From positions 1 through 54,688 of IMG/VR virus record IMGVR_UViG_2541047774_000008: a stretch of 54,688 nucleotides of DNA, one strand, 5' to 3'. The translations under genes and the position numbers were made by a program. The notes beneath the pieces are model-generated. The model was not told the DNA's origin. It saw nothing but the letters and a program-made list of their open reading frames with translations, and did not search any database. The stretch comes from a virus (taxonomy: Duplodnaviria; Heunggongvirae; Uroviricota; Caudoviricetes). Shown here one piece after another: positions 27,985 to 28,278 of the stretch. Position 1 is the stretch's first letter. Every line of letters starts with the position of its first letter.

Positions 27985-28278
27985 TCAATTATCCCTTTTT
28001 TTCGGGTAGTTCCTGAACATCTCACCGCCAGGTTTCTGTAAGCCCATCCCGGTATGTGTGCGGTTTATGGCCTCTTTCAGTATTCCGAAATTATCCGGTA
28101 TGACTGGTTGACGCGCTGCCTTACGGATACATTCCGCGCGACGCTTTGCCACCTGTTCGCGCTCCTTGTCAGTGCTCACCAGCCACATAACATCAGCCCA
28201 ACGTGCCGCCGCTCTCCGGTACAGCCCTTTAGCCTCCAGTTCTTCCGCTTTGCTGTCTTTAATCATGCTGTACCTCAC
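27985..28278 (-). CDS. PerC-family transcriptional activator homologue
   Basis: 97 aa; N-terminus KDSKAEELEAKGLYRRAAARWADVM resembles PerC/Pch proteins. Confidence 0.55.
   Translation of the reverse strand: MRYSMIKDSKAEELEAKGLYRRAAARWADVMWLVSTDKEREQVAKRRAECIRKAARQPVIPDNFGILKEAINRTHTGMGLQKPGGEMFRNYPKKRDN

Follow-up and report, generated by a model that had tools for sequence, protein, structure and literature searches.

A predicted PchE-branch PerC-family protein encoded in an exchangeable cassette of a capsid-forming phage satellite

Among the Pch regulators of the PerC family in Escherichia coli, only Pch group 1 is required for ler and espA expression and for adherence (PMC6265319), acting by relief of H-NS/StpA/Hha silencing at LEE1, the ler promoter in the enterocyte effacement locus (LEE) (PMC4764244). 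PchE behaves otherwise: its over-expression lowers csgD and curli, biofilm, eae and stpA, raises flhDC and flagella, and lifts ler only 2.1-fold (PMC6265319, PMC7369912). In strain Sakai pchE (ECs_1588) lies within 'prophage Sp7; untypable', the element also called CP-933C or O-island 51 (OI-51), whose LEE-stimulating factor was mapped to RgdR (ECs1581, DUF4222), not to PchE (PMC3378721). The prototype capsid-forming phage-inducible chromosomal island (cf-PICI), EcCIEDL933, is a 15.4 kb element of strain EDL933 (bioRxiv 10.1101/2022.09.08.507074), taken here, from its size and gene content, to be the Sp7/OI-51 element. Phage-inducible chromosomal islands (PICIs) supply further relatives: some E. 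coli PICIs encode PerC alleles (Fillol-Salom et al. 2018, PMC6092414); EDL933 PchE and its CFT073 homologue have no effect on LEE1-lacZ fusions in the account of Porter 2005 relayed by PMC11773190 and PMC6265319; and EcCIMP1_025, of a PICI group in which PerC presence is variable, silences LEE1-lux in Citrobacter rodentium in a dose-dependent manner (PMC11773190). Satellite PerC homologues with a link to virulence regulation are, in short, an already published and ordinary kind of gene. Here we examine one of them, on the minus strand of a 54,688-nucleotide stretch of viral DNA (IMG/VR virus record IMGVR_UViG_2541047774_000008, positions 1 to 54,688; hereafter the window), within a satellite island that is itself inserted in a prophage. 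An initial annotation of the window had described its product as a 97-aa homologue of the PerC/Pch activators, carried on a satellite and potentially able to couple satellite presence to host virulence regulation.

The resemblance to PerC/Pch is confirmed by profile comparison. The mechanical open reading frame (ORF) at 27985..28278 (minus strand), 97 aa counted from a GTG, matches Pfam PF06069 (PerC) at 120.8 bits (E 3e-35; curated gathering cut-off 22.6 bits) over model positions 1-89 of 90, and the PerC protein aligns along its whole length with phrog_994 (E 2e-42), placing its family membership far above chance similarity; the RefSeq label for the same gene in the best matches, among them E. 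coli 042, is 'PerC family transcriptional regulator'. The length of 97 aa, by contrast, describes only the mechanical ORF. Translation almost certainly starts at the ATG at 28266, giving a product of 93 aa, because the Pfam match opens at residue 5 of the longer frame, because a GAGG at 28276-28273 sits 6 nt upstream of this ATG whereas the GTG at 28278 overlaps it, because homologues open with MIKDSK or MIRDSK, and because independent gene calls on identical islands are 93 aa long. The gene and its signal are as follows.

27985..28266, minus strand: predicted PerC-family (PchE-type) coding sequence, 93 aa (PF06069, phrog_994, gene calls, RefSeq label)
28273..28276, minus strand: putative GAGG ribosome-binding site, 6 nt 5' of the ATG (direct reading of the sequence)

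The protein has the family's form, a small single domain (~90-105 aa in the family) with the N-terminal motif A-x2-LE-x-KG-x-YRRAA-x-RW-x2-VM and a cysteine near residue 46. The family takes its name from transcriptional activation of LEE1/ler, and of bfp and eae. Alignment to PerC and PchABC, which the initial annotation had proposed as a check, gave similarity beyond chance with shared invariant residues: A7, L10, E11, G14, R17, R18, A19, R22, W23, M27, R36, R43, C46 and G75 are unchanged in PerC, Pch group 1, PchD and PchE, and D4, E8, E11, G14, Y16, R17, R18, A19, R22, W23 and C46 are invariant in an alignment of 57 sequences.

Within the family, however, the likeness to PerC and PchABC is one of family, N-terminal motif and 44-47% identity, and the protein groups elsewhere. 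Identity to the window protein is 62% for the CFT073 PerC-like protein (over 79 residues), 59% for Sakai PchE, 48% for EcCIMP1_025, 47% for the 104-aa Pch group 1 protein (EDL933 copy), 44% for PerC of enteropathogenic E. coli (EPEC; plasmid pMAR2) and 36% for PchD. In distance-based neighbour-joining (NJ) analysis (a tree of 114 sequences, with 200 bootstraps on 30 of them), 183 of 200 bootstraps place the window protein with PchE in a clade to which neither PerC nor Pch group 1 belongs, and 185 of 200 make PerC and Pch group 1 sisters. By these sequence comparisons the window protein groups with the PchE branch (Pch group 3), away from the LEE activators PerC and PchABC.

Gene position points the same way. 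The Sp7 order runs from integrase through ECs1581, primase, ECs1586, ssb, pchE and ECs1589 to major head, protease and portal, and on to TerS and TerL; the window order (83-aa gene, ssb, PerC gene, 82-aa gene, the additional orf168, capsid) matches it, as does the order hypothetical gene, ssb, PerC, hypothetical gene, capsid of EcCICFT073, the satellite of CFT073. Since the slot is the same in both elements, the window gene is the positional counterpart of pchE. The ssb-PerC order is found in Sakai Sp7, CFT073 and nine other Enterobacterales loci. In other Enterobacterales a co-oriented satellite primase lies directly upstream of the PerC homologue at 14 of 16 informative loci, nine of the 14 also having ssb, in hosts that include E. 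albertii, Enterobacter, Kluyvera, Shimwellia, Atlantibacter, Chimaeribacter, Lonsdalea, Pantoea and Erwinia. Because the primase(-ssb)-PerC order recurs across species, the link of PerC to the end of satellite replication modules appears to be old and general. To our knowledge most of these non-E. coli hosts lack LEE, which argues against a conserved LEE-specific function.

Although the position is old, the gene itself is optional. An exact look-up with the capsid gene returned near-identical islands only, and diversity came from an IMG/VR scan that gathered 61 loci with a related capsid gene, in 45 of which (capsid identity at least 68% and enough upstream DNA) what lies between ssb and the 82-aa gene could be scored. 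This slot holds a PerC gene in 12 islands, a ProQ/FinO-family gene in 16 and neither in 17, while the ~230 bp of capsid-upstream DNA hardly differs between PerC-positive, ProQ-positive and empty islands (alignment of 13 islands). Because 33 of the 45 related islands lack PerC yet have the same capsid-upstream DNA, the PerC gene is an exchangeable accessory cassette of ~330 bp, with ssb on one side and the 82-aa gene on the other, located at the 3' end of the replication operon. A dedicated activator of the island's capsid (late) operon, considered as a candidate role, is disfavoured on the same count. The ProQ/FinO (RNA chaperone-like) alternative was seen in loci L001 (10373-10915) and L006 (6462-6998) and in IMG/VR loci L038, L041, L073-L077 and others. 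An E. albertii island has PerC and ProQ/FinO genes in tandem, and on an IncK2/Z plasmid (L025) a PerC gene adjoins a ProQ/FinO gene.

We put at roughly 55% the probability that the gene is PchE-type accessory cargo that tunes the host, its product acting in trans from the replication operon as a nucleoid or anti-silencing modulator; on this reading it would be neither a dedicated LEE activator nor needed for satellite capsid-operon expression. The gene would be expressed with the satellite replication operon to give a small helical protein with a predicted three-helix N-terminal core like a tetratricopeptide repeat (TPR), bearing conserved arginines. By analogy with its relatives, that product would act on the host nucleoid, remodelling silencing complexes of the H-NS/StpA type at AT-rich promoters and so, like PchE, retuning genes for the host's surface and motility, with csgD and curli down and flhDC and flagella up. 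The nucleoid-acting step is proposed because of the predicted fold together with the published work on Pch. AlphaFold2, run with the 57-sequence alignment, gave a mean predicted local distance difference test (pLDDT) score of 80, above 90 for residues 1-50, with predicted helices at 5-13, 16-29, 33-50 and 61-73. The model has no classical helix-turn-helix, R17, R18 and R22 lie on its conserved surface, and its third helix is basic; a search of the PDB found no sequence relative of the PerC protein.

Several points weigh against this proposal. The PchE phenotypes come mostly from plasmid over-expression; anti-silencing has been shown for group 1 Pch only, which is 47% identical to the window protein; Fukui et al. 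failed to co-precipitate Pch with H-NS; TPR-like matches are generic for a predicted helical bundle of 50 residues; and repression of LEE1 by the satellite homologue EcCIMP1_025 means that the sign of the effect differs within the family (PMC11773190). Charge is a further difficulty. The isoelectric point (pI) of the window protein is 10.0, like that of EPEC PerC (9.8), Pch group 1 (10.3) and EcCIMP1_025 (9.6) and near the family median of 9.8 over 109 homologues, whereas O157 PchE, 59% identical, is an acidic outlier at 5.7 (Sakai PchE, L002 31772-32044). The phenotypes of PchE may therefore not transfer to the window protein; this contrast in pI is the main reason for caution in transferring them, and O157 PchE may represent the satellite PerC clade poorly.

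Of the other explanations, one takes that contrast at face value: most satellite PerC proteins, that of the window among them, would be basic, DNA-associated counter-silencers with O157 PchE the atypical and misleading member, and the slot would be dedicated to global regulators (PerC as nucleoid anti-silencer or ProQ/FinO as RNA chaperone) whose cargo reprograms the host, possibly with its helper prophages, and including ler in LEE-positive hosts. We regard this as unlikely.

It is rather improbable that the gene encodes a repressor or anti-activator of virulence genes, of the ANR kind, through which the satellite would silence LEE or other horizontally acquired loci. The silencing of LEE1 by EcCIMP1_025, which is also satellite-borne and basic, is a precedent, and PchE itself lowers csgD, eae and stpA; one family member (P0092) is moreover named 'ANR family' by NCBI. 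The window protein is nevertheless nearer to the LEE1-null PchE and CFT073 homologues (59-62%) than to EcCIMP1_025 (48%), which falls in a separate subclade of the NJ tree, that of the P0096 type. No ANR family model was matched, Pfam giving PerC only and NCBIfam yielding no model of whatever name for the PerC protein at E<=0.01, with the presence of an ANR model in these libraries unconfirmed.

The initial annotation's proposal of a PerC/PchABC-type activator that works on the ler (LEE1) promoter, so that gain of the satellite would turn LEE on in a LEE-positive host, fares no better, and we consider it quite improbable. Its identity to Pch group 1 (47%) and to PerC (44%) equals the identity between those two (47%), and these are reported to act on LEE1 of either pathotype (Porter 2005, as relayed by PMC6265319); it is basic as they are, unlike O157 PchE; even PchE lifted ler when over-expressed; and PMC6092414 states that some PICI PerC homologues activate LEE. 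The protein nonetheless groups with PchE and does not have the extra C-terminal stretch seen in group 1 proteins, which are 104 aa long; the two closest tested satellite homologues (EDL933, 59%; CFT073, 62%) are null on LEE1-lacZ as PMC11773190 relays it, and EcCIMP1_025 represses. Near-identical copies are annotated in E. coli 042, in enterotoxigenic E. coli and in commensal-type strains among the matches listed, and homologues in the same position occur in genera generally known to be without LEE, Erwinia, Lonsdalea, Pantoea and Enterobacter among them. The broader idea of a coupling between satellite and virulence stands on RgdR (PMC3378721), on the PICI PerC alleles (PMC6092414) and on EcCIMP1_025 (PMC11773190); the wording of a LEE activator is not supported.

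Finally, we doubt to the same degree that the gene serves the life cycle of the satellite itself (by activating or counter-silencing the capsid/packaging operon or helper-phage genes, or as a replication adaptor, with host phenotypes as side effects), since for all its constant place after primase/ssb in satellites of many genera, a PerC homologue after the replication protein in lambdoid phage mEp460, the AT-rich DNA (~36% GC) with a separate promoter-like site between PerC gene and capsid operon, and a TPR-like predicted fold that would suggest protein-protein contacts, the 33 related islands without PerC retain ssb, the 82-aa gene and a near-identical capsid-upstream region, a ProQ/FinO gene substitutes in 16 of them, and a term search of two cf-PICI papers (bioRxiv 10.1101/2022.09.08.507074 and 10.1101/2025.02.11.637232) found no mention of PerC or pchE.

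The genes around the cassette are arranged in the window as follows.

28989..30404, minus strand: RepA-type helicase (AAA_25), island replication gene (PF13481, E 3e-44; relatives labelled 'helicase RepA family protein')
28704..28955, minus strand: 83-aa conserved gene, counterpart of ECs1586, first of the hypothetical gene-ssb-PerC unit (phrog_1231; tblastn matches in related islands)
28282..28707, minus strand: ssb, directly upstream of the PerC gene in the same predicted operon (PF00436, TIGR00621)
27691..27939, minus strand: 82-aa conserved gene after PerC, predicted last gene of the operon (phrog_1957)
27662..27681, no strand assigned: G+C-rich, bidirectional terminator-like hairpin, GGCCTGG-6-CCAGGCC, both strands bearing T runs (terminator scan)
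27148..27654, plus strand: orf168, a convergent, AT-rich (36% GC) 168-aa cargo ORF (phrog_5789, function unknown, E 3.5e-86; GC profile)
26862..27147, minus strand: region upstream of the island capsid operon (promoter scan; alignment of 13 islands)

The genes are tightly spaced, with 33 nt from the end of the helicase gene to the 83-aa gene, 15 nt from the ssb stop codon (28282-28284) to the PerC ATG, and 45 nt from the PerC stop to the 82-aa gene, which has its own AGGAGG. A promoter scan of the minus strand from the helicase gene to PerC found no sigma-70-like site. In O157 the pchE transcript start, mapped by rapid amplification of cDNA ends (RACE), lies 10 nt upstream of ECs1586, and a polycistronic ECs1586-ECs1587(ssb)-pchE RNA is made (PMC7369912). 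The spacing of the genes, the lack of any internal promoter match and the RACE mapping in O157 together lead us to infer that PerC is co-transcribed with the replication operon as its distal gene, with a terminator between it and the capsid operon. That operon probably ends at the bidirectional hairpin, which lies 3' of the 82-aa gene and also closes the convergent orf168. The 82-aa gene is found in nearly all related islands, and is 96% identical to the copy in a PerC-less island and 40% identical to ECs1589.

Beyond the terminator, orf168 lies between the PerC operon and the capsid operon and occurs in only some related islands, which makes it a second optional cassette; it has no Pfam match and no PADLOC match. 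PADLOC likewise reported no defence-system match for the PerC protein, the 82-aa gene or the 83-aa gene, and an Rfam scan of the island found no family. Two plus-strand ORFs that overlap the PerC gene, at 28054-28563 and at 27660-28016, were rejected as genes, since neither matches any Pfam family at a cut-off as loose as E<=1. Upstream of the capsid operon stand a promoter-like TTTACA-N16-TATGTT at 27038-27011 and GTTC-type repeats. The conserved ~230 bp (~26880-27110, minus strand) before the capsid gene carries TTTTGTAAATTATTTGTTCGTG, followed by these repeats and the promoter-like site, and the TTTTGTAAATTATTTGTTCGTG motif is retained even in Sakai Sp7; the stretch may serve as a packaging site or as a late promoter/operator.

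The distribution of the family is narrow. A profile search of 1.84 billion representatives found only 342 PerC-family clusters at E<=0.001, Enterobacterales and their mobile elements account for almost all of the named homologue matches and of the tblastn matches to plasmids and phages, and other PHROG families share just the N-terminal ~50 residues with the PerC protein. Within E. coli, a 1.2-kb query (27600-28800, comprising the PerC gene, ssb and flanks) had some match in 1,587 of 5,426 complete genomes. In three unrelated contexts PerC-family genes adjoin genes like that for 3'-phosphoadenosine 5'-phosphosulfate (PAPS) reductase: ibrA-ybdM-pchD (Sakai SpLE1, 42943-45146), a Citrobacter plasmid (3414-5255) and gp44-gp45 of lambdoid phage mEp460 (3707-4848). 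At Enterobacter, Chimaeribacter and Pantoea loci (~7300-12100) the primase-(ssb)-PerC order leads on to a lipoprotein-like gene, two small genes and a tape-measure-like ORF of 850-1,140 aa; a tblastn search at E<=1e-5 found no homologue of this island's capsid there, and these loci may represent a different kind of satellite.

That the gene is carried by a satellite, as the initial annotation had it, is borne out by the element around it.

20356..35312, minus strand: capsid-forming PICI-like satellite carrying the PerC gene, ~14.96 kb (blastn junctions; annotation of a relative; Pfam labels on identical islands)

Its genes are all on the minus strand, in the order integrase, two helix-turn-helix regulators, BRO-N gene, small genes, DUF4222 gene, RepA-type helicase, 83-aa gene, ssb, PerC gene and 82-aa gene, and then a capsid module of major capsid, HK97 protease, portal, head-tail connector, HNH, TerS and TerL. 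cf-PICIs have been defined as elements of 10-18 kb with integrase, regulation and replication modules and their own capsid, protease, portal, head-tail connector, HNH, TerS and TerL, without tail or lysis genes (bioRxiv 10.1101/2025.02.11.637232), and the island agrees with this in size and gene content; the separate adaptor gene known from Sp7 was not identified in it. It departs from the further description of a unique att site in the chromosome that prophages never occupy (bioRxiv 10.1101/2022.09.08.507074), as it splits the terL of a lambdoid prophage integrated beside tRNA-Ser/mtfA, leaving terL fragments at 19612-20337 and 35147-36340. In strain N51 the same prophage (99.4-99.6% identity) has terL intact, blastn gives the junctions, and imperfect 14-bp repeats, TTGGTAAGAATATT and TTGGTAAAAAAATT, flank the island at 20342-20355 and 35313-35326, the junctions overlapping by the repeat. 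Several relatives among the matches listed are annotated with two terL features, and the split gene is shown in 2014C-3075.

The DUF4222 gene of the island (30401-30700, minus strand) encodes a homologue of RgdR (ECs1581), in which the RGD motif reads R-P-G-D and R20, the residue altered in the inactive R20C variant of commensals (PMC3378721), is likewise replaced. In the host prophage a cluster of four tRNA genes (40318-40627, minus strand; Gly-UCC, Thr-UGU, Lys-UUU and Met/Ile-CAU) sits between the Q antiterminator and the holin gene, the place of the stx genes in Stx phages, and the prophage relative in strain 2014C-3075 has stx1d at the place of this cluster.

If this allele does act on H-NS-silenced loci, gain of the satellite would alter host adhesion, motility or virulence-gene expression and would add a regulatory route to the ways in which phage satellites shape pathogen phenotypes, a route already documented for this satellite family by RgdR, PchE and EcCIMP1_025. 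The value of the analysis lies mainly in correct classification, as an accessory cassette of the PchE branch and not a LEE activator of the PerC/PchABC type; and the sole experimentally studied PchE being an atypical, acidic member, its results should be transferred with care.

Set against known systems, the closest is O157 PchE on Sp7, which shares with the window gene its Pfam family, clade, kind of satellite and slot, has nearly the same length (90 versus 93 aa) and is followed by a homologous small gene (40%), but differs in sequence (59% identity only) and in its acidic charge; its island, moreover, uses a primase and lies beside phoQ, whereas that of the window has a RepA-type helicase and lies within a prophage terL. 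The PerC-like gene of EcCICFT073 (C_RS07000) has the same neighbours and the highest identity, yet encodes only 82 aa and belongs to a classical PICI with a different capsid-remodelling module. PchA, PchB and PchC and the PerC (BfpW) of the EPEC plasmid pEAF are alike in family, in the N-terminal motif AE.LE.KG.YRRAA.RW..VM, in C46 and in basic charge, but form a sister clade at 47% and 44% identity and differ in setting: Pch group 1 proteins have 104 aa with a C-terminal tail, and the EDL933 copy lies downstream of holin, lysozyme and Rz1 in a lambdoid prophage remnant, while perC of EPEC lies in the plasmid perABC operon; the 93-aa window protein has no such extension and is encoded in a satellite replication operon. 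These proteins activate LEE1 through relief of H-NS silencing (PMC4764244), whereas the PchE-branch members tested do not activate LEE. EcCIMP1_025 (PICI EcCIMP1, E. coli MP1) is likewise satellite-borne, basic, 93 aa long and regarded as accessory with variable presence, but is 48% identical, belongs to another subclade (82% identity to the Enterobacter/Klebsiella type P0096), represses LEE1, and is located close to the island end, well away from the primase. RgdR, although of an unrelated protein family, is also a small basic regulator of OI-51-type satellites; it ties satellite carriage to type III secretion and motility and accounts for the LEE effect of OI-51 (PMC3378721).
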